Source: Sinorhizobium meliloti (GTDB lineage: Bacteria; Pseudomonadota; Alphaproteobacteria; Rhizobiales; Rhizobiaceae). Taken from it: a stretch of DNA of 32,000 nucleotides. Below, piece after piece: positions 1 to 28,688 of this stretch (positions are counted from its first letter, which is position 1; each line of letters opens with the position of its first letter). The stretch spans positions 960,001 through 992,000 of the forward strand of contig NZ_JAGIOS010000002.1 of the NCBI RefSeq assembly GCF_017876815.1. Reading direction: 5' to 3'. The notes under the pieces were generated by a model that did not search any database, had not been told where the DNA came from, and saw nothing but the letters and a program-made list of their open reading frames with translations. Position numbers and translations under genes: made by a program.

Positions 1-201
1 GTATTGGGCAAATGCGCCTGCTCGATCGATGTGATCGCTTCCATCCTGCCCTATGACAAATATGTCCAGGCTGAAACGGTGCTGTCTCTCCAGCAGGGGA
101 GCGGCGAGCAGCTGGCCATGTTCAAGTCGGCGGTCGTGCCACGCACCATGGTCGCGGATATGAGACGCGCCCAGGCCGAGGCGGAGATGCTGTGTTTTTA
201 A
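1..201 (+). CDS. 3' end of a CDS entering from upstream of the window (partial, function unknown)
   Basis: Frame 1 is open from base 1 to TAA 199-201. Codon position 3 shows the strong G/C preference of real genes in this DNA. No family is recognisable from the 66 C-terminal residues. Confidence 0.4.
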   Translation, partial: VLGKCACSIDVIASILPYDKYVQAETVLSLQQGSGEQLAMFKSAVVPRTMVADMRRAQAEAEMLCF

Positions 202-274: not shown

Positions 275-1087
275 TCAGGCGGGCGGCGTCTTCGGCAGGA
301 CGCGGTCGAAGACATTGCCGTCCGTGTCGACCGCATGGACCGTGAAGTCCGGGGCACCATTGTCGGTATAGCTGAAGCGGAACACGGGATTTTCACTGAT
401 CGATATCCCGCCGTCGAGCGCGAACAGAAGCTCGTCTCCCTGCTTCACGACCAATTCGGTGATGAATTTCGCACTGACGAAGAGCTGAGTGATCTGGTCC
501 CGCTGGAGACCGGAATAGTTCGGATGGCGGATCATGATCTGCGCCTCGCGGCGGGCTTTTTGTACTTCGCCCTTGCCATCGAAGAGCTTCAGCCGCATCT
601 CTCCCATGTCCTTCAGCGCCGCGACCGGGTCCTTTGTGGCGGGCGCCGAGCAGCCGCCGGATGCCTTGACGAAGCGGCCATTCATGAAAATGCCCCGCGG
701 CGTTTCGGCGATCGCTCGGATGTTCGAATATTGGTTGACGCGCACGCGGGTTTCGAATTTCAGCGGTGCCATTGCGGGGCCGAAGCGGATTTCGGCGGCC
801 ACCGGCGCCGGGTTCTCGTCGATCACCAGCTTGAGGGATTCGATCGGGTCCGCCGCCGCGTCCGTCTGCTCGATCGTGACCGGCACCGTCGCGGCGTCGT
901 TGGCGCGGTAGGGCGCGGTGACGGAGAACAGGGCGGAGCCGTCGAGAATGGCCGCCTCGCCGACGACGTCGCCCTTCAAATCGCGCCAGGTCGTGCCGTC
1001 TGCTAGCGGGTTGTTCGGCTTCTCCGGCTCGGCAAGTGCGAGGCTTGCCGTCAGCGTGACGGGAATAAGCGCGAGAATGAGCTTCAT
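275..1087 (-). CDS. Periplasmic SoxY-SoxZ fusion protein (quinoprotein dehydrogenase-associated SoxYZ-like carrier type)
   Basis: ATG at 1085-1087 with a purine-rich AAGGGGG upstream. Signal peptide MKLILALIPVTLTASLALA. The only cysteine is in GGC (KASGGCSAP; Cys146 codon 650-652), the SoxY carrier motif. The C-terminal half is beta-rich like SoxZ. Confidence 0.75.
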   Translation of the reverse strand: MKLILALIPVTLTASLALAEPEKPNNPLADGTTWRDLKGDVVGEAAILDGSALFSVTAPYRANDAATVPVTIEQTDAAADPIESLKLVIDENPAPVAAEIRFGPAMAPLKFETRVRVNQYSNIRAIAETPRGIFMNGRFVKASGGCSAPATKDPVAALKDMGEMRLKLFDGKGEVQKARREAQIMIRHPNYSGLQRDQITQLFVSAKFITELVVKQGDELLFALDGGISISENPVFRFSYTDNGAPDFTVHAVDTDGNVFDRVLPKTPPA

Positions 1088-1221
1088 GGTTCAAAGCCCC
1101 CTTTTTGGACAGGCTGCGAGTATCTTATAGCATAGAACGAGATGCCCGGGAGCAGAAGCGAGCCTTTCGGATATGTTGTCTGGCGCGACCGGCGGCCGCA
1201 ATCTTGTAGATCGCCGAGTTC

Positions 1222-2319
1222 GTGTATCGCCCACTTTTTCGAAAATGCCGGGGGCTCGAGGTGTTCGAAGCATTCGTGACGATGTGCATCCTTGCTGCAG
1301 CCGTTCCTGACGCGCCGCCGAGCGAGATGTGCCGGGCGGCATTGCTGCCCGGCTTTGCGGCGGAGACGAAAGCGGGGTGCGAGCATGCGTTGCACTCCGT
1401 CATACGCAAGCCGGACGACTGGACCGAGAAGCCGCCATTTTGTGCCCCGAGGCCGAAGTCGGCTCTTTCCTTCAGCGAAGCGGCCCCAGGGGTCTTCCTG
1501 CATCGCGGCCGGGTGGCGGAGCCGGATGCGGAAAACGGCGGCGACGTGTCCAACTTCGGCTTCGTCGTAGGGTCGCGCAGCATCGCCGTGATCGATTCCG
1601 GCGGCGCGCGCAAACTCGGAGAAGAGATCTATCTGGCGATCCGCGAACGAAGTCGCCTGCCGATCAGCCATCTGGTCCTGACGCATATGCATCCGGACCA
1701 CGTCTTCGGCGCCGAGCCGCTCCGCGAGGCAGGCGCGGCAGTGCTCGGCCAGGCGAATTTACCGCGTGCGCTCTCCGACCGCGCCGAAGACTATCGCGCA
1801 AGCTACGCCCGTCGGATCGGCGAGGCGGCCTTCCTGGGCAGCCGCATAGTCGCGCCGGATCGGACGATAGCGCAGCAGGAGGCGATCGACCTCGGCGGCA
1901 GGGTGCTGGAGCTGCGCGCCTGGCCAACGGCGCACACCTCTACCGACCTCACTGTCTTCGACCGGACGTCCGGTATCCTTTTCGCCGGCGATCTTCTGTT
2001 CGACAGGCACACGCCGGCCCTCGACGGTTCGCTGCGCGGCTGGCTCGCCGTTCTTTCCGAAATGAAGGACCTCGGCGCGCCGAAGGTCGTGCCGGGCCAT
2101 GGAGGGCCGCTGCTCGACTGGCCGCAGGCCGCCGCGCCGCTCGAACGCTACCTCCGTGTTCTGGAGTCCGACACGAAGAAAGCGCTCGACGAGGGCCTGG
2201 CGCTCGGGGAAGCAAACGAGGTCATCGGTCAAAGCGAATCGGGCCGATGGCGCCTGTTCGATCTCTTGAACCCGCAAAACGCCACGGCAGCCTATACGGA
2301 GATGGAATGGGATCCTTAG
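1222..2319 (+). CDS. Metallo-beta-lactamase-fold hydrolase (quinoprotein relay system zinc metallohydrolase-like)
   Basis: HxHxDH zinc motif (THMHPDHVFG) plus later His/Asp ligands (TAHTSTD, PGHGGP). Start is uncertain: GTG 1222, ATG 1282 or ATG 1327, none with a strong RBS. Divergent from the SoxYZ-like gene. Confidence 0.75.
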   Translation: MYRPLFRKCRGLEVFEAFVTMCILAAAVPDAPPSEMCRAALLPGFAAETKAGCEHALHSVIRKPDDWTEKPPFCAPRPKSALSFSEAAPGVFLHRGRVAEPDAENGGDVSNFGFVVGSRSIAVIDSGGARKLGEEIYLAIRERSRLPISHLVLTHMHPDHVFGAEPLREAGAAVLGQANLPRALSDRAEDYRASYARRIGEAAFLGSRIVAPDRTIAQQEAIDLGGRVLELRAWPTAHTSTDLTVFDRTSGILFAGDLLFDRHTPALDGSLRGWLAVLSEMKDLGAPKVVPGHGGPLLDWPQAAAPLERYLRVLESDTKKALDEGLALGEANEVIGQSESGRWRLFDLLNPQNATAAYTEMEWDP

Positions 2320-2447: not shown

Positions 2448-3089
2448 TCAATCAGGCACATGCTTCAGCAGCATCTGTGCGATGGCATAGGCGCGTTTTT
2501 CCAGAAGCACCGGCGTTTCGCAGACATAGGTGAGCGCCTGCGAGCGATCGCGATAAATGCGCTCGTCCCAGTCGATCTGTTCCTCCAGCTTGTCGATACG
2601 GTCGAAATCGGGGCTTTTCTCCCGCGAGAGCTTCGCCATCTCGACGCGCGCGCCTTCGATGCGCGACGAGAGCGCGATCTGGCTGCGGGAATAGCGGGCT
2701 ATCCCGGCGATCAGCCGCTGTCGGGTCTCGGCGATATTGTCGAACACGCCGTAGAAAATGTTGCCGAGAAGTTGACCGTCGGCCTGCTTGTTCCGCTCCA
2801 CGAAAGCCCTGACATGCGCGTCGGCCTCTTCCAGGCTGACCCGGCGAAGCGACAATGCTTCCACGAGATCGGTTGCTTCGGGCGAAAGAGGCGTGCGGGT
2901 CACCGGCGCGGGCCACATCAGGCTCGCCGACAGGTTCTCGACCTTGCGCTGGATACAGGGCCAGTCGGGATCGGAAAAATCCATTGCTCCTGCGATGCCG
3001 GGGGCTTGCGTCAGGCAAAGCGCCAGCCCTAGCGCCAGATTGAGCGGCAAACCGCGCATCCGGCGAAGCGCATGACAGGCGACTCTCAT
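2448..3089 (-). CDS. Secreted hypothetical protein, charged and helix-rich
   Basis: ATG 3087-3089 with GGAGA 8 nt upstream (alternative ATG at 3059). Signal-like MRGLPLNLALGLALCLTQAPGIAGA. Codon bias is good. I recognise no family. Confidence 0.6.
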   Translation of the reverse strand: MRVACHALRRMRGLPLNLALGLALCLTQAPGIAGAMDFSDPDWPCIQRKVENLSASLMWPAPVTRTPLSPEATDLVEALSLRRVSLEEADAHVRAFVERNKQADGQLLGNIFYGVFDNIAETRQRLIAGIARYSRSQIALSSRIEGARVEMAKLSREKSPDFDRIDKLEEQIDWDERIYRDRSQALTYVCETPVLLEKRAYAIAQMLLKHVPD

Positions 3090-3258: not shown

Positions 3259-4386
<1,128 letters not shown>

Positions 4387-4394
4387 GCGCGAAG

Positions 4395-5225
4395 ATGGAA
4401 CTCGTAACGCAAAGCCAATGTTTCGGCGGAACCCAGTCGGTCTACCGCCACGCCTCCGAGGTTTGCGGCGTCGAGATGACATTCGGCCTCTACATGCCGC
4501 CACAGGCGCGGACGCGTTCGGTACCGCTCCTGTGGTATCTCTCGGGCCTGACATGCACGCATGAGAACGCGATGATCAAGGCGGGCCTGCAGCGGCACGC
4601 GGCCGAGCAGGGGCTGGCGCTGGTTTTCCCCGACACCTCGCCGCGCGGCGAGGGCGTGGCCGACGACGAGGCCTATGATCTCGGTCAGGGTGCGGGCTTC
4701 TATGTCAATGCGACGCAGAAGCCCTGGTCGCCGCACTATCGCATGTATGATTACATCGTCACCGAATTGCCCGCCCTTCTGCAGGAGCAGTTGCCGCTCA
4801 ACGGCGTCAACGGCATTACCGGGCACTCGATGGGCGGCCACGGCGCGCTGACGATCGCCTTCCGCAATCCGGAATTGTTCCGCTCCGTTTCGGCCTTCGC
4901 GCCGATCGTGAATCCGACCCGGTCCGACTGGGGGCGTAAGCAGTTCTCGGCCTATCTCGGCGACGACGAGGCCGACTGGGGCAGCTATGACGCCTGCCTG
5001 CTTCTCGGCGAGCTCGGCTGGCATGGCGATATCCTGATCGATCAGGGCGCGGCGGACCAGTTTCTGGACGAGCTGCAGCCTGAGGCTATGGCCCGCTTGC
5101 TGGCGGAGCGGCGGCAGGCCGGCGTGGTCCGGCTGCAGGCGGGTTACGATCACAGCTATTATTTCGTGGCGAGCTTCGGCGAGGACCACGTGCGCTGGCA
5201 TGCAGAGCGGCTGAATGCCGCGTAA
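4395..5225 (+). CDS. fghA: S-formylglutathione hydrolase (esterase D family)
   Basis: ATG 4395 lies 8 nt after the adhC stop. Nucleophile elbow GHSMGGHGA and C-terminal GYDHSYYF motif. 276 aa. The track ORF 3531-5225 is this gene fused to an out-of-frame upstream extension. Confidence 0.92.
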   Translation: MELVTQSQCFGGTQSVYRHASEVCGVEMTFGLYMPPQARTRSVPLLWYLSGLTCTHENAMIKAGLQRHAAEQGLALVFPDTSPRGEGVADDEAYDLGQGAGFYVNATQKPWSPHYRMYDYIVTELPALLQEQLPLNGVNGITGHSMGGHGALTIAFRNPELFRSVSAFAPIVNPTRSDWGRKQFSAYLGDDEADWGSYDACLLLGELGWHGDILIDQGAADQFLDELQPEAMARLLAERRQAGVVRLQAGYDHSYYFVASFGEDHVRWHAERLNAA

Positions 5226-5826: not shown

Positions 5827-7632
5827 ATGAAACGACTTCTTACAATGCTTGCCATTATGTCGATAGGCGGCGGTGCACAGGTCGCTTTCGCCAACGATGA
5901 GTTGCAGAAGCTCATCGATGACCCCAATCAATGGGCCATCCAGACCGGCGATTATGCCAACCTGCGCTACTCCAAGCTCGACCAGATCAACAAGGACAAC
6001 GTAGGCAAACTTCAGGTTGCCTGGACCTTCTCGACCGGCGTTCTGCGTGGTCACGAAGGTTCGCCGCTCGTCATCGGCGACCTGATGTACGTCCATACGC
6101 CGTTCCCGAACACGGTCTACGCGCTGGATCTCAGCAAGGATGGCCAGATCGTCTGGAAATACGAGCCGAAGCAGGATCCGAACGTGATCCCGGTGATGTG
6201 TTGCGACACCGTTAATCGCGGCGTGGCCTATGCGGATAACAAGATCTTCCTGCATCAGGCCGATACGACGGTCGTGGCACTCGACGCCAAGACCGGCAAG
6301 GTCATCTGGAGCGTCAAGAACGGCGATGCTACCAAGGGCGAGACGAATACCGCCACCGTCATGCCGGTGAAGGATAAGATTCTCGTCGGCATATCCGGCG
6401 GCGAGTTCGGCGTCCGCGGTCACGTGACGGCCTATTCGATGGCAGACGGGAAGGTCCTGTGGCGTGGTTACTCCATGGGGCCGGACAGCGATACGCTGAT
6501 CGATCCTGAAAAGACTACCCATCTGGGCAAGCCGGTCGGCAAGGACTCCGGCCTCACCACCTGGGAAGGCGATCAGTGGAAGATCGGCGGCGGCACGACC
6601 TGGGGCTGGTACTCCTACGATCCGGAAGAAAATCTGGTATATTACGGAACCGGTAACCCTTCGACCTGGAACCCGACCCAGCGGCCGGGCGACAATCGGT
6701 GGTCGATGACCATCTTCGCGCGTGATGTCGATACCGGCATGGCCAAATGGCTCTATCAGATGACGCCCCATGACGAATGGGACTATGACGGCGTCAACGA
6801 GATGATCCTGACCGAACAGCAGATCGACGGTAAGGACCGCAAGCTGCTGACCCACTTCGACCGGAACGGCTTCGGCTATACGATGGACCGCGTCACTGGC
6901 GAGCTGCTCGTGGCCGAGAAATACGATCCCACGGTCAACTGGGCGACTGAAGTGGTCATGGACCCGAAGTCCGACAAATACGGTCGGCCTCAGGTCGTGG
7001 CACAGTATTCGACCGAGCAAAACGGCGAAGACACCAACACCACCGGCGTCTGCCCGGCGGCACTCGGCACCAAGGACCAGCAGCCTGCGGCCTATTCGCC
7101 TAAGACCGAGCTGTTCTATGTGCCCACCAACCACGTCTGCATGGACTACGAGCCTTTCCGGGTAAGCTACACCGCCGGCCAACCCTATGTCGGGGCCACG
7201 CTTTCGATGTACCCGCCGAAGGACAGCCACGGCGGCATGGGCAATTTCATTGCCTGGGACAACAAGGAAGGCAAGATCAAGTGGTCTCTGCCGGAGCCTT
7301 TCTCGGTCTGGTCCGGCGCTCTGGCGACAGCCGGCGATGTGGTCTTCTACGGAACGCTCGAGGGCTATCTCAAGGCGGTCGACGCGGCAACCGGCAAGGA
7401 GCTCTATCGCTTCAAGACGCCTTCCGGGGTGATCGGCAACGTGATGACCTATGCCCGTGAAGGCAAGCAGTACGTGGCGGTGCTCTCCGGTGTCGGCGGC
7501 TGGGCCGGTATCGGTCTGGCAGCGGGCCTGACCAACCCGACTGAAGGTCTGGGAGCCGTCGGCGGCTACTCGGCCCTCAGCAACTACACCGCACTCGGCG
7601 GCACGCTCACCGTGTTCAAGCTGCCGGAGTAA
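5827..7632 (+). CDS. xoxF: XoxF-type PQQ-dependent methanol/alcohol dehydrogenase (lanthanide-dependent type)
   Basis: ATG 5827 after GAGGAGGA. Signal peptide. Vicinal Cys-Cys (VMCCDT, 6199-6204). WDYDGVN with the extra Asp diagnostic of XoxF (DYD at 6781-6789). Repeated W-motif propeller blades. 601 aa. Confidence 0.93.
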
Positions 7633-7710: not shown

Positions 7711-8241
7711 ATGACCAGATCAAGACCAGCCGTACCGATGATCCTCGCCTTTTTGACGTTTATGGCGAGCGCCGCAGGCGCAGAAGATGCGCCAAAGGAC
7801 AACATCACCGCTGTGCGCGACGAAAACGGGCGCTACTACACCGCCGACGACGTTCCCACTTTCAAGATCGCCGAGGACGGCACGGTCGACTGGCTCACCT
7901 ATTCGGGCTTTCGCCGCTACCACTCGGAATGTCACGTCTGTCATGGCCCGGAGGGCGAGGGGTCGAGCTATGCGCCGGCCTTGAAGACCTCCGCGATCAA
8001 CATGGACTACTACGATTTCGTCGATGTCGTCACGAACGGGCGCAAGAAGGTGAACGCTGCCGAGAACTCGGTGATGCCTGCCTTCGGCGAGAACGTCAAC
8101 GTGATGTGTTATCTCGACGACATCTACGTCTATCTGAAAGCGCGCGGAGCCGATGCGCTGCCGCGGGGACGTCCGGCCAAGAAGGAAGCGAAATCCGATG
8201 CGATCAAGGAAGCTGAAACGGCTTGTCTCGGTCACGAGTAG
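7711..8241 (+). CDS. xoxG: XoxG, cytochrome cL-like electron acceptor of XoxF
   Basis: ATG 7711 after AAAAGGA. Signal peptide MTRSRPAVPMILAFLTFMASAAGA. Heme motif CHVCHG. It sits directly downstream of xoxF. Confidence 0.85.
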   Translation: MTRSRPAVPMILAFLTFMASAAGAEDAPKDNITAVRDENGRYYTADDVPTFKIAEDGTVDWLTYSGFRRYHSECHVCHGPEGEGSSYAPALKTSAINMDYYDFVDVVTNGRKKVNAAENSVMPAFGENVNVMCYLDDIYVYLKARGADALPRGRPAKKEAKSDAIKEAETACLGHE

Positions 8242-9064
8242 CCTCCTGGCAGCCGCCGGCGCTCTCATGGCGGCCGCCGGCTCTCAGCAGGCGGCGGCCC
8301 AGACATCGGATCTTGTTTCGAAGACGGCGTTTCGAGTCTGTGCCGATCCGGCCAATCTGCCGATGTCGGATCGTTCGGGTAAGGGCTACGAGAACAGGAT
8401 CGCCGAACTGATGGCATCCAAGCTCGGTTTGCCGGTGGAGTACACCTGGTTTCCGATGGCGACGGGCTTCGTGCGCAAGACCCTGCAGGCCAATGCCTGC
8501 GACGTGGTCATCGGTTTTGCCCAGGGCGATGAGCTGGTCCTGAACACCAACCATTACTATACATCGTCCTATGTGCTGATCGTTGCCTCGGAAGGTCCCC
8601 TGGGCGGTGTCACGACGCTTGCCGACCCTCTTCTCAAGGACAAGCGGATCGGCATCGTTGCGGGAACGCCGCCGGCGACGCATATGGCGAGAAACGGACT
8701 GCTGCCCAAGGCCAAAGGCTATCATTTGATGGTCGACCGGCGCTACGAGGATCCGGCCGACGACATGCTCGCTGACCTGGAATCCGGCGCCCTCGACGCA
8801 GCCATCCTCTGGGGGCCGATCGGCGGTCCGCTCGTCAAGGGAAGCCACCCGAAGCTGAAGGCGACCCCGCTTCTGTCGGAGACCACGCCGCCAAAGCTCT
8901 TCTACCGCATCACGATGGGCGTGCGGCAAGGCGAGAAGGTCTGGGAGCGCAAGCTCAATTCTCTCATTCGTCGAAATCAGTCCGAGATCAACGCGATCCT
9001 CGCCGATGCCGGCGTGCCGCTCCTGAACGACATGGGAACCGGCCCGCTCGAGGCGCAGCAATGA
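8198..9064 (+). CDS. xoxJ: XoxJ/MxaJ-like periplasmic binding-fold protein
   Basis: ATG 8198 gives a proper signal peptide (MRSRKLKRLVSVTSSLLAAAGALMAAAGSQQAAA). Type II solute-binding-protein-like sequence. Position is canonical after xoxF-xoxG. The start overlaps xoxG by 44 nt. Confidence 0.8.
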   Translation: MRSRKLKRLVSVTSSLLAAAGALMAAAGSQQAAAQTSDLVSKTAFRVCADPANLPMSDRSGKGYENRIAELMASKLGLPVEYTWFPMATGFVRKTLQANACDVVIGFAQGDELVLNTNHYYTSSYVLIVASEGPLGGVTTLADPLLKDKRIGIVAGTPPATHMARNGLLPKAKGYHLMVDRRYEDPADDMLADLESGALDAAILWGPIGGPLVKGSHPKLKATPLLSETTPPKLFYRITMGVRQGEKVWERKLNSLIRRNQSEINAILADAGVPLLNDMGTGPLEAQQ

Positions 9065-9606
9065 CCCGCCTGCGGCTCCATTCGCTGGTCCTGCTCCTGC
9101 TTGCCGCCTTCCCGGCGGCGGCGGCCGAGGAGCCTGCCGGCTACCGCGAGAGCGAGTACCGCGCCGAGGTGCCGGCGACGCTTTCCGGTGCGACGGTCGT
9201 GTCGACCGAAGCTGCCCATGCATTGTGGAAGACCGGTCAGGTCGCTTTCATCGACGTCCTGCCGCGGCCGCCGAAGCCGACCAATCTCCCGGAGGGGACG
9301 GTCTGGAACGAAAAGCCGCGCCTGTCCATTCCATCTGCCCTATGGCTGCCGAATGTCGGCTATGGCCAGCTGGCCGACGCCATGCACGCCTATTTTCGCG
9401 CCGGCCTGGAAAAGGCGACCGGTGGCGACAAGGACCGGCCGGTGCTTTTCTTTTGCCTCGACGGCTGCTGGATGTCCTGGAACGCCGGAAAGCGAGCTCT
9501 GGAGTATGGCTACACACGTGTCTTCTGGTATCCGCAGGGCACCGATGGCTGGACGGCCGCCGGCTACCCCACGGAGCGCATCGACCCGGAGCCCGGCGGC
9601 CGGTGA
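9061..9606 (+). CDS. Secreted rhodanese-like protein with CXXCW motif (PQQ-dependent catabolism-associated CXXCW family)
   Basis: ATGA start/stop overlap with xoxJ (9061-9064). Signal peptide MTRLRLHSLVLLLLAAFPAAAA. Motif CLDGCW at 9454-9471. Confidence 0.8.
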   Translation: MTRLRLHSLVLLLLAAFPAAAAEEPAGYRESEYRAEVPATLSGATVVSTEAAHALWKTGQVAFIDVLPRPPKPTNLPEGTVWNEKPRLSIPSALWLPNVGYGQLADAMHAYFRAGLEKATGGDKDRPVLFFCLDGCWMSWNAGKRALEYGYTRVFWYPQGTDGWTAAGYPTERIDPEPGGR

Positions 9607-9777: not shown

Positions 9778-10299
9778 TCAGGATTTGAAGAAGTGGTTTT
9801 TCAGGATGTAGCGGATGCCGCGCAGCCAGCTGTCGTCGGTGTTCGAGCGGATGTCGACGGCAAGGCCGCGCAGCATCTCGCCGGAGTCCACGTCGCGCAG
9901 TACGAGCTCCACCGATAGGATAAGGTTGGAGATCTTCCGCACTTCGCCGACCAACACGTAGTCGGCGCCAAGCCGCTCGCCCATAGTCAGGTCGCAGCCG
10001 TTGCAGTCGGCAGGATTGACCGTGCCGGCGAGTTCGGCCGCCACTGGCTCGTTCGTGAGAATGACGAAGCCTTCCTGAACGAAGCGGTCGCGCGCGGCGC
10101 CTTCCATGAGCTCGAGCCGCGCGGTCTCGTCGGCGCGCACTCCGTTATAGGCGCCCTCCGTCGACAGATCGATGAAGGTCATGCCGAGGAATGCTACCTT
10201 GGCGCCCGGCGTGAGCGGCTTGTCCAGCGCGGCGCGCGCGAGCGCCGGCAACAGTGCCAGGACAAGGATGGAGACAAGGACTGTCAGGATGTGCCGCAT
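9778..10299 (-). CDS. Secreted hypothetical protein with CNGC motif (possibly DUF2380/DUF3280-like)
   Basis: ATG 10297-10299. Signal peptide MRHILTVLVSILVLALLPALARA. CxxC pair C99/C102 (codons 10003-10005 and 9994-9996). The family name is recalled only weakly. Confidence 0.65.
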   Translation of the reverse strand: MRHILTVLVSILVLALLPALARAALDKPLTPGAKVAFLGMTFIDLSTEGAYNGVRADETARLELMEGAARDRFVQEGFVILTNEPVAAELAGTVNPADCNGCDLTMGERLGADYVLVGEVRKISNLILSVELVLRDVDSGEMLRGLAVDIRSNTDDSWLRGIRYILKNHFFKS

Positions 10300-12589: not shown

Positions 12590-12628
12590 ACGGTGCAATT
12601 TGCAAATATCAACGGGGAGGAGTTCATC

Positions 12629-13072
12629 GTGCATAAATCGGTTCTTGCGGCGCTCGCCGCGCTCTCTCTGGCGAGCCCGGCCGTTGCCGCGCCGCTTTGC
12701 AGCGACCTCGGCTTTGCCGGCCTGCTTGCCAAATGCAACCGCGGCGAGCCGATCGAGATCACGCTCGCGTCCGGAAAGCCGCTCGGCAAGGGTGCCATTA
12801 CGCTTCAGTCCGGCGCATACTACGAAATGCAGATCACGGCGGACGGATCGGCGGAGCTGGCGATTACCGGTGCGCCGTTCTTTCGTGCGATCTGGATGAA
12901 CGAGATCGTTGTCAACGGCATAGAAGTTCGCCCAATGGCGATCGACAGTCTGGAATTCGACGAGGCCGGGACGGCAACCCTGTCCTTCATCGCCGTCAAG
13001 CCGGGCAGCTATGAGGTGAAGATTCCGGAAACCTCCGGCGACAGCCAGAAAGTATCGATTTCCATACAGTGA
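12629..13072 (+). CDS. Small secreted beta-rich hypothetical protein (147 aa)
   Basis: GTG 12629 is preceded by GGGGAGGAG (12614-12622). Signal peptide VHKSVLAALAALSLASPAVA. A Cys pair sits near the mature N-terminus. The track start 12593 lacks an RBS. Confidence 0.6.
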   Translation: MHKSVLAALAALSLASPAVAAPLCSDLGFAGLLAKCNRGEPIEITLASGKPLGKGAITLQSGAYYEMQITADGSAELAITGAPFFRAIWMNEIVVNGIEVRPMAIDSLEFDEAGTATLSFIAVKPGSYEVKIPETSGDSQKVSISIQ

Positions 13073-17105: not shown

Positions 17106-17675
17106 ATGCTCAAGCTACATCCGTCCATCGACAACGGCTTCCCGCCTGCCAGTCCGGGCTTTGCCGGCGGTACGCTGAAATGCAAATGCGCCTCAAATCC
17201 GGTGACCGTGCGGATCGGCTCGCAGACGGCGCACAACCACGCCTGCGGCTGCACCAAGTGCTGGAAACCCGAGGGTGCCATCTTCGCGCAGATCGCCGTC
17301 GTCGGCCGCGACAACGTGAACGTCACCTCAGGTGCGGAAAAACTGCAGGTCGTCGATCCGAGCGCGACGATCCAGCGTTACGCCTGCCGCGATTGCGGCA
17401 CGCACATGTATGGCAGGATCGAAAACACCAAGCATCCCTTCTACGGCCTCGACTTCGTCCATACCGAACTCAGCGACGAAACGGGCTGGTCGCCGCCCGA
17501 ATTCGCAGCCTTCGTTTCTTCGATCATCGAAAGCGGTGTGAACCCGGAGAGCATGCCGGAGATACGCGCAAGGCTGACCGAGCTCGGCCTGCAGCCCTAT
17601 GATTGTCTGTCTCCGCCGCTGATGGACGCGATCGCCACGCATATCGCCAAACAGACCGGCGCCCTGCCGGCCTGA
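17106..17675 (+). CDS. gfa: S-(hydroxymethyl)glutathione synthase (glutathione-dependent formaldehyde-activating enzyme)
   Basis: ATG 17106 after GAGGAGG (17094-17100). Cys clusters CKC..., CGCTKCW and [11 protein letters not shown] are typical of Gfa zinc sites. 189 aa. Confidence 0.92.
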
Positions 17676-17728
17676 CCCTTTGCACATTGGGGACACCGCG
17701 CCACCAGCCGACCGTCTCCTCCCTCGGA

Positions 17729-17787
17729 CCCCGCCCGTCGCCTCTTGTTGGAGAGGCATTTCGACGGGCGGGGGCTGAGGCGTTTTT
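17729..17787 (+). terminator. Nested GC-rich stem-loop downstream of gfa, followed by T5
   Basis: Outer 12-bp perfect stem ccccgcccgtcg (17729-17740) / cgacgggcgggg (17762-17773). Inner hairpin cctct/agagg. TTTTT lies at 17783-17787, 9 nt after the stem, so spacing is not canonical. Confidence 0.5.
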
Positions 17788-17834
17788 CTCGACGGGCCCC
17801 AGCCTGTGCGCTCGTCTGCCTTGGTATCCTTACA

Positions 17835-17952
17835 TCCTCATTCCTGTGCTTTTCACAGGAATCCAGCCAGACCAAGTCCTTGGGTTGAAAAGACATTCCC
17901 GCGCCGCAGACGCGGCGCCGATGGATCCCTGTGACAAGCACAGGGATGAGGT
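17835..17952. repeat. Composite of family 2 repeats: one full inverted copy plus one forward half-copy around a small GC hairpin
   Basis: 17835-17892 is the reverse complement of the 9664-9722 element. 17921-17952 (atggatccctgtgacaagcacagggatgaggt) repeats its palindromic half in forward orientation. The spacer contains gcgccgc-agac-gcggcgc. Confidence 0.65.
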
Positions 17953-18028
17953 AGAAGGAGGGAGCCTTTGCTCGGCTGTCGTGCATGGTGGCGTATCAGA
18001 AGACGCGTGGCGAGATCGTGAACGTCCA

Positions 18029-18595
18029 TCAAACCTGAAAAGCCGAAATCTTCCATTTGATGGTACAGCCTATGGAAGGCTGCTGCTCGGCCGGTCCCTT
18101 GCCGAACAGCGCGACCATGACCATGGCCTCGTAGAGATCGCGTCTGAGATCGGCAGGACCGATCTCCTTGCGCGAGGCGTCCAGCCGTCCGCGATATTGC
18201 AGCTTCATGTCCTTGTTGAAGCCGAAGAAATCGGGCGTGCAGACGGCGCGGTAGGCCTTGGCGACGGATTGGCCCTCGTCGTGGAGATAAGGAAAGGGCA
18301 GGGCATTTTGCGAAGCGAAGCGCTTCATGTTTTCGAACGAGTCCTGCGGGTAATTGCCGGCGTCGTTGGAGTTAACAGCCACGAAGCCGATTCCATGAGC
18401 CCTGAGGTCGATCGCGTCCCGAACGATCCGGGCGATGACCGCTTTCACATAGGGGCAGTGATTGCAGATAAAGGCAACGACCAGCCCTTTCGGGCCGGCC
18501 TGGCTGAATATGGAGTGGGTGAAGCCATCGACGCCCGGAAGCCTGGCGTCGAACGCGGGCCAGCCGAAATCACAAAGGGGTGGTGTAGCGGCCAT
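18029..18595 (-). CDS. Cytoplasmic thioredoxin-fold protein (AhpC/TSA-redoxin-like) with CNHC motif
   Basis: ATG 18593-18595 lies 3 nt after the rpe stop (18599-18601). Motif VAFICNHCPYV. No signal peptide. Confidence 0.8.
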   Translation of the reverse strand: MAATPPLCDFGWPAFDARLPGVDGFTHSIFSQAGPKGLVVAFICNHCPYVKAVIARIVRDAIDLRAHGIGFVAVNSNDAGNYPQDSFENMKRFASQNALPFPYLHDEGQSVAKAYRAVCTPDFFGFNKDMKLQYRGRLDASRKEIGPADLRRDLYEAMVMVALFGKGPAEQQPSIGCTIKWKISAFQV

Positions 18596-18598
18596 GGC

Positions 18599-19285
18599 TC
18601 ACGCTGCCTTCCTGATCGCGCCGTCGGAGGCGGCGCGGATAGCCGCGATGTTCCTGGCGTAGTGCTCCTCGCTACCGCCCTTGAAGACCGCCGAGCCGGC
18701 AACCAGCACATCGGCCCCGGCCGCGGCAACGAGCGGCGCGGTCTCCGGCGTCACGCCGCCGTCGATTTCTATGTGGATCGGACGGCCGCCGATCATCGAC
18801 CTCACCCGCCGCACCTTGTCGACCACGGCCGGGATGAAATCCTGGCCGCCGAAGCCCGGATTGACCGTCATCAGGAGGACGAGGTCCAGCCGGTCCAGCA
18901 CATATTCGATGACGCTCTCCGGCGTCGAGGGGTTGAGCGATACGCCCGCCTTGCAGCCGACGTCGCGGATGGCCTGCAGCGAGCGATCGAGATGCGTGGT
19001 CGCCTCCGCATGCACGGTGATGATGTCGCAGCCGGCACAGGCGAAGGCGCCGAGGTAGGGCGTGGGTGGTTCGATCATCAGATGGCAATCGAACACCTTG
19101 TCCGTGCGGTCCCGCAACGCCTTAATGACCGGGGGGCCGAAGGTGATGTTGGGCACGAAGTGGCCGTCCATCACGTCGAGATGTATCCAGTCCGCACCGG
19201 CCCGGCACACGGCCTCGACCTCTTCGCCGAGCCGCGAGAAATCGGCCGACAGAACCGAAGGCGCAATGATGGTCTTCTCATTCAT
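18599..19285 (-). CDS. rpe: Ribulose-phosphate 3-epimerase
   Basis: N-terminus [17 protein letters not shown]...[16 protein letters not shown] is the classic Rpe signature. ATGA overlap with the cbbX stop (19282-19285). Confidence 0.93.
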
Positions 19286-20217
19286 GGCGATGTCTCCGTA
19301 TGACTGGGTTCGACCGTGGCGAACACGCGGCTCGCGGCAATGTCCCGCGCCGTGATGGTCGACAGTTGTTCGGCATCGACCGGTCCGGCGCTTTCCTCGA
19401 ACAGGCGGTTCGCCTGCCGCAGCCGGGCCCGGTCGAGCGCGTTTCGGATGGAGCGCGCATTGGCGAAATGCGGCTGGCGCCGGCGGCGCGCGATGTAGTC
19501 GCTCATCACCGCAGACGCCTTGCTGTCGAAGCGGTACCCCTGCCGGCTGAGCATGCTCTCGGCGATCGACAGAAGCTCCCCGTTATCATAGTCGGGGAAG
19601 TCTATGTGGTGGGCGATGCGCGATCGGAAGCCGGGATTGCTCTCGAAAAACCGGTCCATGCGGTCGGCGTAGCCGGCGAGAATCACGACCAGGTCGTCGC
19701 GATTGTTCTCCATCACCTGCAGCAGGATCTCGATTGCCTCCTGGCCGTAATCGCGTTCGTTGTCGGGACGGTAGAGGTAGTAGGCCTCGTCGATGAAGAG
19801 CACGCCCCCCATCGCCTTCTTCAGGATCTCCTTGGTCTTGGGTGCGGTGTGGCCGATATATTGCCCGACCAGATCGTCGCGCGTCACCGACACCAGATGG
19901 CCCTTGCGGATATAGCCGAGCCTGTGCAGCAGGTTGGCCATGCGCAGCGCCACCGTCGTCTTGCCGGTGCCGGGGTTGCCGGTGAAGCTCATATGCAGCG
20001 ACGGCGGCTCATGGCTGAGGCCCATTGCACGGCGGGCCCGCTCGACGAGAAGCAGCGCCGCCGTCTCGCGGATACGCTGCTTCACGGGTTTCAAGCCCAC
20101 GAGTTCCCGGTCCAGTTCGTCGAGGATTTCGGCGACGCCGGAGGCTTGGTATTCCTCAGCGAGGTCGACCGAGGTCGGCAGGCTTTCGGTGTTCGATGGA
20201 GCATCCGGCATCAGCAT
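19282..20217 (-). CDS. cbbX: CbbX, AAA+ red-type RuBisCO activase
   Basis: ATG 20215-20217 preceded by GGAGGAG. Walker [10 protein letters not shown], Walker B VLFIDEAY. 311 aa. Located after cbbLS. The track ORF extends spuriously to 20478. Confidence 0.92.
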
Positions 20218-20228
20218 TGTCGCTCCTC

Positions 20229-20618
20229 CTATCGCTGCGTTTCCCACATATAATGCTGGCTGCGGCCGTTGCTCTCCGTCCGGGTCATCCTGAGGCTCGG
20301 CTCGTTTTCGGGACGGTTGACTATGAACGACATCGTCACCGTCTCCAGGCCGCGGCTGGAATCGAAGGCGTTGAGGCGGATATAGTCCTGCGGATGGGCC
20401 TTGCGGCAATCCTCCACCTCCATCATCACGCCTTTGGCGTCCTTGAGGTCGAACATCGGGTTGCCCCACATTTCCCAATAGGTGTTTCTAGGATGAGGGT
20501 CGTCGGTATACTCGACGCCGATAGCCCAACCCTTTCCAAGGCAATATTCCACCTGCGCCGTGATCTGCTCGTCGGTCAGGTCGGGCAGGAACGAGAAGCA
20601 TCCCTGGGTGATACGCAT
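20229..20618 (-). CDS. cbbS: RuBisCO small subunit
   Basis: ATG 20616-20618 after [25 protein letters not shown]...YWEMWG is the typical red-type small-subunit N-terminus. 129 aa. Confidence 0.95.
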
Positions 20619-20659
20619 GTCGTCTCTCCTTCTCTTCTTGTCCGTCAGGTTCGGGTCTG

Positions 20660-23232
<2,573 letters not shown>

Positions 23233-23234
23233 TG

Positions 23235-25319
23235 TCATGCCTCCTCGGATGATCTGACGATGTGGGCGACCGGTTTGCCGGTCCGGGCACCTATGGGCGG
23301 CGTTTCCGGGCATGCCCGGCGGAGAAGCTCCAGGGCTTCTGCGACGACATGGTCGGCGGTAATGCCGAAATGGCGGTAGAGGTCTCCGGCCGGTGCCGAG
23401 GCACCGAAGCCTGTCATCCCGACGAAAGCACTGTCGGGGCCCATCCAACGGTCCCAGCCGAGGCGGCCCGCCGCCTCGATGGCGATGCGCGGTGCATCTC
23501 CGAGGACCTGCCTTTGATAGGCCGCGTCCTGAGCCTCGAACTTCTCCCAGCACGGCATGGAGACCACCGCCGCTGCTATGCGTTCTTCGGCCTGCAGGCG
23601 CTCCGCTGCGGCAACGGCGATCTCGACTTCGGATCCCGTGGCGAGAAGCGTGATATCCCGGTCGCCGCGCGCCTCCATCAGGACATAGGCCCCGAGCGCC
23701 GACAGGTTCTCGTTCCCGTCCGTCCGGCGCAGCATCGGCAGGGCCTGCCGCGAAAGGGCGAGGACGCTCGGCGTGTTCTTCTCGCCAATCGCGATCTCCC
23801 AGCATTCCGCCGTCTCGATGATGTCGGCCGGCCGGAAGACGTTGAGGTTGGGCGTGGCGCGCAGCATGGCCAGATGCTCGACCGGCTGGTGCGTCGGTCC
23901 GTCTTCGCCGAGCCCGATGGAATCATGGGTCAGCACATAGATGACCGGCAGGCCCATCAGGGCCGAAAGGCGCATCGCACCGCGGGCATAGTCGGAAAAG
24001 ACCAGGAAAGTGCCCCCATAGGGGATGAAGCCGCCATGGAGCGCGATGCCGTTCATGGCGGCCGCCATGCCGTGCTCGCGGATGCCGTAATGCAGGTAGC
24101 GGCCCTTGAAATTACCCGGCGAGATGGGCTGGGTCTGCGAGGTCAGCGTCAGGTTCGAACCGGTCAGGTCGGCCGAGCCGCCGATGGTCAAAGCGGTGGC
24201 GCCGTTGATGACCTCCAGAGCCATCTGCGAGGCCTGACGCGTCGCGACCTTCGTAGCCCTTGTGCGATGCGCGCCCCGGAATCTTGCAAGCAGATCGCCG
24301 ACCTCGCCGTCGAGCTGCCGCTCTACGGTCTGCTCGTAGCGCTTTTTCGAGCGCGAAGCGTCAAGGCGGATTTCCCACGCCTCGCGGGCCGTGCGGCCCC
24401 GCGTCGCCACCTTTTCCCAGGCGGCCTTGATCTCGGGCGGAACGAAGAAGGGCGGATGCGGCCAGCCGAGTTTTTCGCGTGTGGCAGCGATCTCCTTTTC
24501 GCCGAGCGCCGCGCCGTGGGTCTTGTGCGAGCCCTCCATGCTGGCGGCACCCTTGCCGATACGGGTGCGGCAGGCGATCAGCGACGGCTTTCGGGTCCGG
24601 CGCGCCCGTTCGATCGCTTTTTCCACCGCGTCGGGGTCGTGGCCGTCGACTGCTTGCGCGTCCCAGCCGGCGGCGCGGAAACGCGCAAGCTGGTTCATCG
24701 AGGTGGAGAGATCGGTCGAGCCGTCGATCGATATCCGGTTGTCGTCCCACAGCACGACGAGCTTGCGCAATTTCAAATGTCCGGCAAGGTCGATCGCCTC
24801 GTGGCTGATCCCCTCCTGCAGGCAGCCGTCTCCGGCTACCACGTAAGTGAAGTGGTTGCAGAGCGCACTGCCGAAGCGGGCGGCCATCATCTGTTCGGCG
24901 ATCGCCATGCCGACAGCGGTCGAGATCCCCTGGCCGAGCGGGCCGGTGGTGGTCTCGATACCGAGGGCATGGCCATATTCGGGGTGGCCGGCCGTTTTCG
25001 AGCCAAGCTGGCGAAAGGATGAAAGCTCGGCCATCGGCATATCGGCGAAGCCGATGAGGTGATGGAGCGAATAGAGCAGCATCGAGCCATGGCCGGCCGA
25101 AAGCACAAAACGGTCGCGGTCCGGCCAGTCGGGGTGTGACGGATCGATCCTGATGAAGCGGTTGAAGAGGACCGTCACCGCGTCGGCCATGCCCATCGGC
25201 ATGCCGGGGTGACCGGAATTGGCCTTCTCGACGGCATCCATGGAAAGAAACCGGATGGCATCGGCCATGCTGCGCTCCGAGGCGGCGGCGCGCGGTCCGA
25301 TCTGCTGCGAAACATTCAT
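23235..25319 (-). CDS. cbbT: Transketolase
   Basis: ATG 25317-25319 after GAGGAGG. ThDP motifs SGHPGMPMG and GDGCLQEG. 694 aa. Confidence 0.95.
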
Positions 25320-25329
25320 GATGTCCTCC

Positions 25330-26199
25330 TCACGACATGCGGTGCTTGCGCTCGAGCAGCTTGTGGATGAGCGGGGTGAAGATCAGCTGCATGGCGAGAT
25401 CGAGCTTGTCGCCCGGCACCACGATGGAATTGGCGCGCGACATGTAGCTGTTGTGCAGCATCGACAGCAGGTAGGGGAAATCGATGCTTTGTGGCTTGGC
25501 GAAGCGGATGACCAGGATGGATTCGGCCGGCGTCGGTATCCAGCGGGCGATAAAGGGATTGGATGTGTCGACGATCGGTACGCGCTGAAAATTGATGTCC
25601 GTCAGGGAGAATTGCGGGCAGATATAGTTCACGTAGTCGGGCATGCGCCGCAGGATGGTGTCGGTCACGGCCTCGGTGGAGTAGCCGCGGGTCGCCTTGT
25701 CGCGATGGATCTTCTGGATCCATTCGAGATTGATCACGGGCACGACGCCGATCTTCAGGTCGCAATGCTGGGCGAGATTGACCGTGTCGGTGACGGCGCA
25801 GCCATGCAGCCCCTCGTAGAAGAGGAGATCACTGTCGCGGAATTCTTCCCAGTCGGTGAACGTGCCGGGGTCCGAACCGAATTTCGCGGCCTCGGCCTCG
25901 TCGTGCACGTAGTGACGGGTGCGGCCGACCCCGCGCCGGCCATATTCGGCGAAGACGCTTTCAAGGATTTCCAGTTCGTTCGCCTCGGCGGAGAAATGCG
26001 TGAAGTCGACGCCTCGGGCTTTCTCCTCCGCTATCTTGCTGCGCATGGTTTCCCGGTCGAAGCGATGAAAGGCATCGCCTTCGATGAAGGACGCCGAAAT
26101 GTTCTCGCGCTTGAATATCTTCTCGAAGGTGTCCTTGACGGTCGTGGTTCCGGCGCCGGACGAACCCGTGATGGAGATGATGGGGAATTTGGCCGACAT
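25330..26199 (-). CDS. cbbP: Phosphoribulokinase
   Basis: ATG 26197-26199 after GAGGAG. P-loop [13 protein letters not shown]. 289 aa. The track ORF start at 26259 is an extension. Confidence 0.95.
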
Positions 26200-26209
26200 A
26201 TTTTTCTCC

Positions 26210-27259
26210 TCAGGCCCGGAACAGACCGCGCTTGCCGAAGAGCGGAGCGCGTTCGCCAATCATGTTCGGGTCGACGTGATAGCGGGTGATGCGCGCCACC
26301 TCGCGGCGCGAACCGAAAACCAGAGGCACGCGCTGGTGCAGATTTTCCGGAACGAGATCGAGAATGCGGTCGATGGACGTGGTGGCCGCGCCGCCGGCAT
26401 TCTCGATGATGAAGGCGATCGGGTTGGCCTCGTAGACGAGCCGCAGCCGGCCCTGGCTATATCCCTTCCGGCCGTCGGCGGGATAGAGAAAGATCCCGCC
26501 GCGGATGAGGATGCGATAGGTTTCCGCGACGAGCGAGGCGATCCAGCGCATGTTGAAATCCCGCTCGCGCGGGCCCTCGGAGCCTGCCAGGCAGTCGTCG
26601 ACATAGAGCCGGATCGCTTCTTCCCAGTGCCGGTAGTTCGACATGTTGATGGCGAATTCGTGCGAGCGCTCCGGGATGATGGCCGACTTGTAGGCCTCGA
26701 CGAAACATCCGAGCCTGCTGGAGAAGATGAAGATCTCCGTCCCCTTGCCGAGCGACAGGACCAGAGCGGTCTGCGGTCCGTAGATAAAGAAGCCCGCCGC
26801 CAGTTGCCGGTTTCCAGGTTGCAGGAAGGACTGGGAGGGGTCCACGTCCGGCCCCTTGGCGGCGGGAAGCACCGAGAAGATCGTGCCGATGGAAACGTTG
26901 TTATCGATGTTCGAAGAGCCGTCGAGCGGGTCGATGGCAACTGCGAGGCGCGCCGACGGGTCGAGCAGAACCGGATTTTCCAGTTCTTCCGAGGCGTAGC
27001 ATGCGACGGGGGCGCCTTGCAGACACGTCAGGAATTGGTCGTCGCACAGGATGTCGAGATCCTTCTGCAGATCGCCATCCGTGTTGCTGCCGCCGTGGGT
27101 GCCGTTGAAAGCGGTGCCGAGCGCTCCCTGGTTGACGAGCTTGCGGATGTCAAGGGCGGCCTTCGCCAGCCTCTGGATCACGGCGGCGACGTCCCCTGAA
27201 AGGTCGTCGCCGCGGGCCGTGCATGAAGCGAGGTAAGCTTCGAGAGTCGCGCCTGACAT
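26210..27259 (-). CDS. cbbF: Class 1 fructose-1,6-bisphosphatase / sedoheptulose bisphosphatase
   Basis: ATG 27257-27259 after GGAGGAG. The metal-binding region VAIDPLDGSSNID is typical of FBPase class 1. 349 aa. First gene of the cbb operon. Confidence 0.93.
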   Translation of the reverse strand: MSGATLEAYLASCTARGDDLSGDVAAVIQRLAKAALDIRKLVNQGALGTAFNGTHGGSNTDGDLQKDLDILCDDQFLTCLQGAPVACYASEELENPVLLDPSARLAVAIDPLDGSSNIDNNVSIGTIFSVLPAAKGPDVDPSQSFLQPGNRQLAAGFFIYGPQTALVLSLGKGTEIFIFSSRLGCFVEAYKSAIIPERSHEFAINMSNYRHWEEAIRLYVDDCLAGSEGPRERDFNMRWIASLVAETYRILIRGGIFLYPADGRKGYSQGRLRLVYEANPIAFIIENAGGAATTSIDRILDLVPENLHQRVPLVFGSRREVARITRYHVDPNMIGERAPLFGKRGLFRA

Positions 27260-27299
27260 GATGTCTCCTCCACACGCTGTCGAGGGAAGGATGGCGCAA

Positions 27300-27360
27300 A
27301 AGGGGAGTTTGTAAAATTTATTCATTTGACTTCATAAGTTAGATTTCCTTACTTTGGCGC
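27300..27360. promoter_or_regulatory. AT-rich cbbR-cbbF divergent control region with candidate CbbR operator
   Basis: The only strongly AT-rich patch in the window (ttgtaaaatttattcatttgacttcataagttagatttccttactt). TTCAT direct repeats sit 10 bp apart (27321, 27331). Imperfect inverted repeat AAGTTAG-N5-CTTACTT at 27336-27354. Confidence 0.5.
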
Positions 27361-28302: not shown

Positions 28303-28584
28303 ATGCGAGCTTCATGCGGGCGGAAAGCGGCGTCGACCGACACCTAGGTCGTAATTGTGGGGCACCACATCGCTTGCTACCATGCGCCCAAGAGGAGATT
28401 TTACGATGCCTAAAGCCCGGCCACGGCGCCGCCGGGCTCTGCCGGAGCAGCGAACTGCCGCTCCGGCGCCTTGACCCGGGCAGGACTGCTACAGGTCCTG
28501 CCTGGTTTCATGCCCGCCCCGACCGCAAGGGCGCCTGCCGGAACGGGAGCGAGCACAACGACCCCACGGGCGAATGGAGGAAGT

Positions 28585-28680: not shown

Positions 28681-28688
28681 AGGCCAGC

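Follow-up and report, generated by a model that had tools for sequence, protein, structure and literature searches.

A SoxYZ-like carrier, a SoxH-related hydrolase and a rhodanese-like protein as a predicted accessory set of lanthanide-dependent alcohol dehydrogenases at a Sinorhizobium meliloti locus

What does a secreted protein built like the sulfur carrier SoxYZ hold on its only cysteine, when its gene stands back to back with the gene of a metal hydrolase and close to that of a lanthanide-type methanol dehydrogenase? The question is raised by a stretch of 32,000 nucleotides of Sinorhizobium meliloti DNA (contig NZ_JAGIOS010000002.1, positions 960,001 to 992,000; the window, below, means this whole stretch), near the beginning of which a SoxYZ-like carrier gene and the gene of a metallo-beta-lactamase (MBL)-fold protein diverge. 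The first 10.4 kb of the window, the portion compared, are 100% identical to megaplasmid pSymB of S. meliloti SM11, and the GenBank annotation of an almost identical pSymB already uses both family names and has the MBL protein starting at window position 1261. The gene pair has already been catalogued and discussed as uncharacterised, and no new family is described here. A sequence-only reading of the locus had proposed a periplasmic relay in which the carrier cysteine captures a product of the quinoprotein, by preference an aldehyde and secondarily a persulfide, which the MBL protein then releases. The evidence presented below makes the logic of a carrier served by a hydrolase probable, with sulfur as the leading, unproven option for the cargo. 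The elements of the pair are as follows.

275-1087, minus strand: SoxYZ-like carrier, 270 amino acids (TIGR04557, Pfam SoxY and SoxZ, AlphaFold2/Foldseek)
1031-1087, minus strand: residues 1-19 of the carrier, a Sec-type signal peptide ending in ...SLALA/EP (judged by eye from the translation)
650-652, minus strand: codon TGC of Cys146 in the motif FVKASGGCSAP (translation)
1088-1260, no strand: spacer of the divergent carrier and MBL2 genes, 173 nucleotides with the start at 1261 (ends of the open reading frames)
1261-2319, plus strand: quinoprotein relay system zinc metallohydrolase 2 (MBL2), a SoxH-related MBL-fold protein of 352 amino acids (TIGR04559, start of the Prokaryotic Genome Annotation Pipeline (PGAP), conserved MFEA)
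1684-1701, plus strand: HMHPDH metal-binding motif of MBL2 (translation; HxHxDH in 74 of 74 orthologues)
1261-1455, plus strand: N-terminal extension of MBL2, about 65 residues with four conserved Cys, C9, C24, C40 and C61 (ortholog alignment)

Searches with hidden Markov models agreed with the family assignments made from the sequence alone, a SoxY-SoxZ fusion and an MBL-fold protein. The carrier matches the NCBIfam model TIGR04557 with 269.6 bits (E = 1.6e-80) over model positions 1-226 of 226, above the cut-off of 140, and MBL2 matches TIGR04559 with 382.4 bits (E = 1.3e-114; cut-off 280). Against the type 1 model, TIGR04558, MBL2 scores 153 bits and stays below the cut-off of 300. The family and context scores of the carrier, MBL2 and the neighbouring dehydrogenase XoxF are far beyond chance. 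Since both curated cut-offs are passed, the GenBank names agree and the fold is that of SoxY and SoxZ, it is near certain that the pair is a genuine member of the TIGR04557 and TIGR04559 families.

The carrier starts with a Sec-type signal, MKLILALIPVTLTASLALA/EP, recognised by inspection of the translation, and unites both domains in one secreted chain, with Pfam SoxY at residues 40-146 and SoxZ at residues 179-261. The SoxY match stops exactly at Cys146, which is the final position of the profile and the sole cysteine of the protein, situated in G144-G145-C146; the motif is internal, as had been noticed before, and not a C-terminal arm. In the alignment, Cys146 falls on residue 122 of the 124 of Paracoccus SoxY (2oxg_Y), its GGCGG cysteine. 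The AlphaFold2 model of the carrier, built on a 77-sequence alignment, has a mean predicted local distance difference test (pLDDT) score of 91.6, with about 91 around the GGC motif. Its best Foldseek matches in the PDB are the SoxY and SoxZ chains of 2oxg/2ox5, at template modelling (TM) scores of about 0.83-0.85. The carrier therefore shares with SoxYZ of Paracoccus pantotrophus (2oxg/2ox5) both domain folds, the Cys at the homologous position after GG and the motifs NPxP, TRxR and HPN. It differs from SoxYZ, a heterodimer, in being one fused polypeptide, and its Cys is internal (GGCSAP, followed by a linker and SoxZ), whereas that of SoxY lies in the C-terminal GGCGG. The carrier fails the models for true SoxY (TIGR04488, 53.2 bits, cut-off 125), having the internal GGCSAP and no C-terminal GGCGG arm, and for true SoxZ (TIGR04490, 50.9 bits, cut-off 76).

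The conservation of this cysteine was assessed in a search of 1.84 billion representatives clustered at 50% identity, which yielded 160 clusters at E ≤ 1e-30, the best 150 of which were aligned. Cys occupies the column in 146 of the 148 representatives that cover it, and the two sequences lacking it are fragment-like. The extended motif reads [FY]VKA[SA]GGCSAP..KD, and 85 of 97 full-length representatives have a single Cys past residue 25, beyond the signal region. The residue is also invariant in the 77-sequence alignment (A1). Being so widely kept, it can be regarded as the defining residue of the family, as the sequence-only reading had anticipated; in contrast to SoxY, it is seated in a conserved internal loop that runs into the SoxZ linker. 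At the looser threshold of E ≤ 1e-5, 7143 clusters (90% identity) match the carrier, a figure into which other SoxY/SoxZ-domain proteins may be counted.

The start of MBL2 is most likely at 1261 rather than at 1222, because the MFEA start is kept in orthologues and the PGAP/GenBank start agrees. The spacer between the two genes contains a single, weak sigma-70-like match at 1106-1133(+). The divergent partner is indeed an HxHxDH protein: its ligands H142, H144, D146, H147, H225, D244 and H280 (numbered from the 1261 start) are each kept in at least 85% of 74 orthologues. The closest solved relatives, among the 60 PDB matches listed of 104, are the chlorothalonil hydrolytic dehalogenase Chd (6uxu) and an uncharacterised MBL protein (8d2z), followed by B1 lactamases. 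MBL2 fails the subclass B1 metallo-beta-lactamase model NF033088 (44 bits vs 200), and an Asp (FAGDLLF) stands, as read from the alignment, at the position of the B1 Zn2 Cys. The glyoxalase II model TIGR03413 (GSH_gloB) reaches 32.3 bits vs 200.8, and the aligned part is confined to residues 111-179, 69 residues in the region of the metal motif. The second metal site keeps its last His (VPGHG), and no persulfide dioxygenase occurs among the 60 PDB matches listed of 104. To our knowledge, persulfide dioxygenases (ETHE1/PDO), which have a mononuclear 2-His-1-Asp iron site, are without this last His. The retention of all seven ligands, the last His included, together with the hydrolytic nature of the nearest solved relatives, argues for MBL2 being a predicted dinuclear hydrolase rather than an iron oxygenase.

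MBL2 resembles SoxH of sox clusters in being an MBL-fold protein with HxHxDH whose gene adjoins that of a SoxY-type carrier. The relation between the two is asserted by the NCBIfam names SoxH_rel_PQQ_1/2, and the contexts differ, that of MBL2 being alcohol and one-carbon (C1) metabolism and that of SoxH thiosulfate oxidation. The 32 open reading frames of the window scanned with NCBIfam include no soxXA, soxB or soxCD.

The N-terminal extension of MBL2 (MFEA..C9..C24..C40..C61) is typical of the Rhodobacterales and Rhizobiaceae proteins, including the one in this window. Neither a recognisable signal peptide nor a basic n-region was found at the N-terminus in this clade, and the periplasmic location of this MBL2 is therefore not established. 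Distant orthologues carry classical Sec or Tat signals, among them those of Azospirillum, Methylobacterium, several metagenomic lineages and the loci L068, L080 and L082. A lipoprotein signal was considered and rejected, as there is no lipobox and just 8 residues precede the Cys. As to the periplasmic relay proposed earlier, it is only for the carrier that this location is shown.

Two genes further along the window complete the core of the argument, the first encoding the dehydrogenase and the second a protein that we propose as the third member of the relay.

5827-7632, plus strand: XoxF-type pyrroloquinoline quinone (PQQ)-dependent methanol/ethanol dehydrogenase with the lanthanide-type Asp of WDYDG and a vicinal Cys-Cys (TIGR03075, 787 bits)
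9061-9606, plus strand: PQQ-dependent catabolism-associated CXXCW motif protein, secreted and rhodanese-like (TIGR03865, Pfam Rhodanese)

XoxF lies 4.7 kb from the carrier. The CXXCW protein matches TIGR03865 with 245.3 bits (cut-off 128) as well as Pfam Rhodanese. Its active-site loop, FC-LDG-CW, has the spacing CX3CW, and FC-x3-CW with both Cys is kept in 43 orthologues. The first Cys of the loop aligns with the rhodanese catalytic Cys of Sud (1qxn) and YgaP; Sud, a periplasmic polysulfide-sulfur transferase, is among the closest solved relatives.

Natural fusions connect the three proteins directly. One of the 150 representatives, P0185 (470 amino acids), consists of a carrier and a CXXCW domain, each half scoring above its curated cut-off; the halves are joined by a Pro/Ala-rich linker with no internal signal peptide, and the fusion is present on two contigs. 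Its gene is preceded by that of a stand-alone MBL protein with HAHPDH and a Tat-like signal. In Sinorhizobium mexicanum, MBL2, carrier and rhodanese genes form a compact operon with no quinoprotein within 12 kb. A metagenomic operon of an MBL gene and a carrier-CXXCW gene (L082:4038-6415) adjoins MAPEG, AraC and VOC/glyoxalase-fold genes, and the 16 kb of this locus include no PQQ dehydrogenase. The carrier is also fused to MBL domains, in two further clusters, P0225 (L083:447-2147) and P0249 with P0392. In these proteins HxHxDH has been lost and is replaced by THSRAEF or THARAEF. They were considered as evidence of catalysis on the carrier and rejected in this role; the degenerate metal motif means that they argue for physical association, not for catalysis. 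These proteins may represent pseudo-enzymes that partner the carrier.

The trio operon and the carrier-rhodanese fusion would also suit a detoxification route resembling that of persulfide dioxygenases, in which MBL2 would act as an iron oxygenase converting a carrier persulfide to sulfite, and the rhodanese-like protein would make thiosulfate. The combination of an MBL protein with a rhodanese mirrors the ETHE1/PDO-rhodanese pairs and fusions, which use glutathione. The metal site described above speaks against such a route, with the last His of the second site in place, and the 60 PDB matches listed of 104 are hydrolases and B1 lactamases; we regard it as very unlikely.

To evaluate the genomic context, 80 loci were gathered via a 15-sequence alignment (A2). 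All are alphaproteobacterial where classified, mainly from Rhodobacterales and Rhizobiales. The loci were scored with the window proteins, and 44 of the 80 have full 10-kb flanks. All-versus-all clustering of open reading frames was disturbed by long shadow frames in this high-GC DNA, and only independently labelled clusters were used. MBL2 is found near the carrier in 41 of the 44 full-flank loci. The two genes are adjacent in 65 of the 73 loci that have MBL2, and both divergent and adjacent in 60 of the 73. A PQQ dehydrogenase lies within 10 kb in 35 of the 44, so the quinoprotein linkage suspected from the window alone extends to its relatives, and the CXXCW protein is present in 34. Every one of the 42 neighbouring dehydrogenases has the Asp of lanthanide type (WD[YF]DG) together with a vicinal Cys-Cys. 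In Paracoccus loci without a nearby dehydrogenase, MBL2 adjoins pqqB. A Phyllobacterium plasmid has ABC transporter genes, MBL2, carrier, up_hypB (a small secreted protein, described below), xoxFGJ, CXXCW and pqqABCDE. Of three distant representatives checked, two stand on contigs of 1-2 kb and are uninformative. Around the third, which is metagenomic, a TonB-dependent receptor and MoxR/VWA accessory genes of methanol dehydrogenase are encoded.

These observations suggest that the SoxYZ-like carrier, the SoxH-related, predicted dizinc hydrolase and the rhodanese-like CX3CW protein are a set accessory to lanthanide-dependent PQQ alcohol dehydrogenases. Our tentatively preferred account of their action is that a sulfur adduct sits on Cys146, where the rhodanese-like protein loads or exchanges it and MBL2 clears it by hydrolysis, in the service of the lanthanide quinoprotein. 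The cargo would be held covalently on Cys146 of the secreted carrier, as the homology to SoxY and the conservation of the Cys suggest. The rhodanese-like protein would load or exchange it by Cys-to-Cys transfer, to which the natural fusion and the retained catalytic Cys point. MBL2, with its intact dinuclear ligand set of glyoxalase II type, would hydrolyse the adduct and restore the free thiol. The cargo itself would most likely be inorganic sulfur, as a persulfide, S-sulfonate or thiosulfonate. The whole may be a small Sox-like relay that yields no energy and clears sulfur nucleophiles or adducts threatening XoxF, in which both the PQQ C5 carbonyl and the strained vicinal disulfide are electrophiles. 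A sulfur adduct is favoured over an aldehyde because each of the three partners has its homologues among proteins of sulfur trafficking, namely SoxY/Z, SoxH and rhodanese. The sulfur relay is favoured, furthermore, because of the carrier-rhodanese fusion with its catalytic Cys, the stand-alone trio operon and the intact dinuclear hydrolase site.

The other genes around the pair bear on the remaining explanations. They are listed here.

4-201, plus strand: 3' end of up_hypB, a secreted protein of 117 amino acids with four Cys, whose start is outside the window (full gene L001:5848-6201)
2448-3089, minus strand: secreted protein of 213 amino acids with two conserved Cys in DPxWPCxQRKV and YxCETP (synteny downstream of MBL2)
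3259-5225, plus strand: adhC (S-hydroxymethylglutathione dehydrogenase) and fghA (S-formylglutathione hydrolase) (TIGR02818, 592 bits; TIGR02821, 477 bits)
7711-8241, plus strand: XoxG, a four-Cys c-type cytochrome (TIGR03874, 267 bits)
8198-9064, plus strand: XoxJ-like periplasmic binding protein (TIGR03871, 295.7 bits)

A cytochrome c gene stands between adhC-fghA and the XoxF gene. As annotated, the xoxG gene runs 44 nucleotides into the xoxJ-like gene, an overlap that suggests translational coupling. Past the CXXCW gene, PQQ-linked ABC-transporter substrate-binding and beta-propeller proteins are encoded. The same group includes a DUF3280 protein at 9778-10299(-) and a secreted hypothetical protein of 159 amino acids at 12593-13072(+), both of which recur in just 4-5 of the 80 loci. 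Positions 17106-31817 contain gfa, a complete cbb operon (rpe, cbbX, RuBisCO, transketolase, phosphoribulokinase, fructose bisphosphatase), cbbR and pqqB; with them, the remainder of the window forms a compact pSymB island for C1 metabolism and autotrophy.

All three genes of the cytoplasmic glutathione route for formaldehyde, gfa, adhC and fghA, are located in the window, as had been pointed out in the sequence-only reading, which saw the carrier and MBL2 as their periplasmic counterpart. According to this explanation, an aldehyde made by the quinoprotein would form a thiohemiacetal on Cys146, be converted to a thioester, for example by XoxF, and be hydrolysed by MBL2. The linkage to formaldehyde oxidation is conserved, with adhC in 30 and fghA in 27 of the 44 full-flank loci, and in Azospirillum brasilense the pair directly follows the tetrahydromethanopterin (H4MPT)-dependent formaldehyde genes fae, mch and mtd. 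Published SoxYZ-S4 loci accompany xoxF and formate dehydrogenase genes, and the ligand pattern HxHxDH...H...D...H of MBL2 is of glyoxalase II type. The explanation is kept alive because synteny with two different formaldehyde pathways is conserved. It gives no role, however, to the rhodanese-like partner that is naturally fused to the carrier, nor does it account for the trio operon occurring with no quinoprotein nearby. The similarity of MBL2 to glyoxalase II falls far below the GloB threshold, and the thiohemiacetal would require an oxidant, none having been identified. The Cys sits in an internal loop (pLDDT about 91) with no free C-terminal arm, from which the buried PQQ site would be hard to reach. 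The comparison with Gfa/AdhC/FghA is instructive in both directions. The succession of thiol adduct, oxidation and hydrolytic release is alike, but that system is cytoplasmic, its thiol is that of glutathione and not of a protein, and its hydrolase, FghA, is no MBL protein but a serine hydrolase of the esterase D type; the comparison brought no evidence for carbon binding by the carrier. Aldehyde capture with glyoxalase II-like release, the chemistry preferred in the sequence-only reading, is on this evidence unlikely, and the carrier persulfide that this reading named second is the better fit. A fuller form, in which the carrier would be a protein-borne periplasmic substitute for glutathione, with Cys146 trapping formaldehyde or another aldehyde that XoxF releases, the quinoprotein oxidising the S-hydroxyalkyl adduct, MBL2 hydrolysing the thioester so formed and the rhodanese-like protein only reactivating the carrier, appears quite unlikely.

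The number of Cys-rich secreted proteins at the locus raises another explanation, in which the set maintains or matures thiols and disulfides, tuning the redox state of the vicinal Cys-Cys in XoxF, or of the additional Cys pair in XoxG, through mixed disulfides of Cys146, with CX3C as a redox pair. These proteins comprise the CX3CW protein (C132, C136), XoxG of the four-Cys family TIGR03874, up_hypB with four Cys and the two-Cys protein at 2448-3089, besides the four-Cys extension of MBL2. The Cys-Cys pair is invariant in the 42 neighbouring dehydrogenases, the rhodanese domain is similar to the one in TsoB, a rhodanese/DsbD-like protein, and a role of this kind has been proposed in a review of the ped cluster (PMC12997753). 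It leaves unexplained why the tightest partner of the carrier is a metal hydrolase with intact ligands (41/44 loci), and a carrier with a single Cys would be odd for disulfide exchange. Moreover, Pseudomonas aeruginosa is without the three genes, yet its ExaA has the same disulfide (PMC12997753). We consider thiol-disulfide maintenance rather unlikely.

As to the small secreted proteins themselves, up_hypB abuts the carrier gene in the window and adjoins it also in Azospirillum and Phyllobacterium; it is found in 40 of the 44 full-flank loci and 69 of the 80 overall. Its four Cys are invariant, its C-terminus is CF, and its 6373 database relatives are all unnamed or labelled 'Rap1a domain'. 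The model of up_hypB (pLDDT 78.5, all-helical) gave nothing below E = 1 in Foldseek against the PDB and no family matched, so no function can be inferred from its fold. A homologue of the protein at 2448-3089 occurs in 32 of the 44 loci and 61 of the 80. This protein has no Pfam, NCBIfam or PDB sequence match, and the PLSDB gene table for the near-identical plasmid does not list its gene.

Upstream, partly outside the window, up_hypB is accompanied by a second secreted protein, up_hypA (223 amino acids, L001:5180-5851), present in 38 of the 44 full-flank loci and with no Pfam, NCBIfam or PDB sequence match. Ahead of both stand three genes (L001:929-5073), which encode a response regulator of LuxR type, a FIST protein and a 715-residue hybrid histidine kinase, the kinase being ErcS/NahK-like in Paracoccus loci. 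The regulator, FIST protein and kinase are probably the regulatory unit of the island. In most alphaproteobacterial loci this set, then up_hypA and up_hypB, adjoins the carrier gene, an arrangement that would allow the carrier to act in sensing, reporting a periplasmic electrophile or sulfur species to these regulators. The regulators are absent beside the pair in Azospirillum, S. mexicanum and Phyllobacterium, and a hydrolase partner suggests turnover, which makes a sensing role most improbable.

The literature places the sulfur relay in a wider setting. The sequence-only reading knew of no biochemical characterisation of the pair, and none was found in the literature searched. The search by S. 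meliloti locus tags gave nothing relevant, and that by PP_ and META1 tags gave, besides the ped-cluster review, irrelevant papers or passing mentions; the content of PMC12423496 and PMC9371685 is unrelated to the carrier/MBL2 module. In the review, of the Pseudomonas ped cluster (2026), lanthanide-dependent dehydrogenases have three conserved, uncharacterised companions, PP_2666 (rhodanese), PP_2677 (SoxYZ fusion) and PP_2678 (SoxH-like), for which disulfide or cofactor maintenance, or shielding of PQQ from sulfur nucleophiles, is proposed (PMC12997753). The same families adjoin lanthanide-dependent PQQ dehydrogenases in this cluster and at META1p1703-1705 of Methylorubrum extorquens (PMC12997753). 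The S. meliloti pair differs from these loci in being divergent, theirs being co-directional, in the four-Cys N-terminal extension of its MBL2, and in its position on a rhizobial megaplasmid, within an island that combines XoxF, glutathione-formaldehyde, cbb and pqq genes. A study from 2024 on the diversity of SoxY found SoxYZ fusions with a PQQ-dependent alcohol dehydrogenase and soxH, and with xoxF and fdh, and speculated that methanol dehydrogenase is protected from thiosulfate (PMC11237559). The same genes were noted in Hyphomicrobium by Li et al. 2024 (PMC11582611); methanol growth of Hyphomicrobium is inhibited by thiosulfate, and a protective role has been suggested (PMC11237559, PMC12997753). 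A precedent for Xox-sulfur-thiol chemistry in a quinoprotein of the XoxF family is ThdT of Advenella kashmirensis, a XoxF homologue reported to act on tetrathionate and thiosulfate with a thiol and to couple tetrathionate to glutathione, as cited in bioRxiv 10.1101/683490 and 10.1101/708438. As described there, ThdT differs in working with glutathione and with canonical SoxB and SoxCD.

Several points weigh against the sulfur relay. No cargo has ever been observed on the carrier, and neither S. meliloti nor P. putida is a sulfur oxidiser. The MBL2 of this clade has no recognisable signal peptide, so that its access to a periplasmic carrier is not assured, and the carrier-MBL fusions with THSRAEF or THARAEF show association only. 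The conserved linkage to formaldehyde genes (adhC in 30/44; fae and mch in Azospirillum) fits an aldehyde role too, and the sample of 80 loci is biased to Alphaproteobacteria near the query. Random barcode transposon sequencing of PP_2666, PP_2677 and PP_2678 revealed minimal phenotypes, in conditions where rare-earth elements were absent (PMC12997753), and a xoxF knock-out of Paracoccus thiocyanatus had no sulfur phenotype according to bioRxiv 10.1101/683490.

Few alcohol dehydrogenases of soil and sea are as widespread as the lanthanide-dependent XoxF enzymes, and a three-protein, cysteine-based set travels with them. S. meliloti is genetically tractable and has a compact xoxF, adhC-fghA-gfa, cbb and pqq island, and hence offers a convenient experimental entry point. 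If the carrier were to carry aldehydes, it would represent a new kind of periplasmic carbon-carrier pathway. If, as tentatively preferred here, the set protects or repairs the PQQ enzyme from sulfur nucleophiles, it would constitute a mechanistic link between the carbon and sulfur cycles and would explain the reported inhibition of methylotrophy by thiosulfate.

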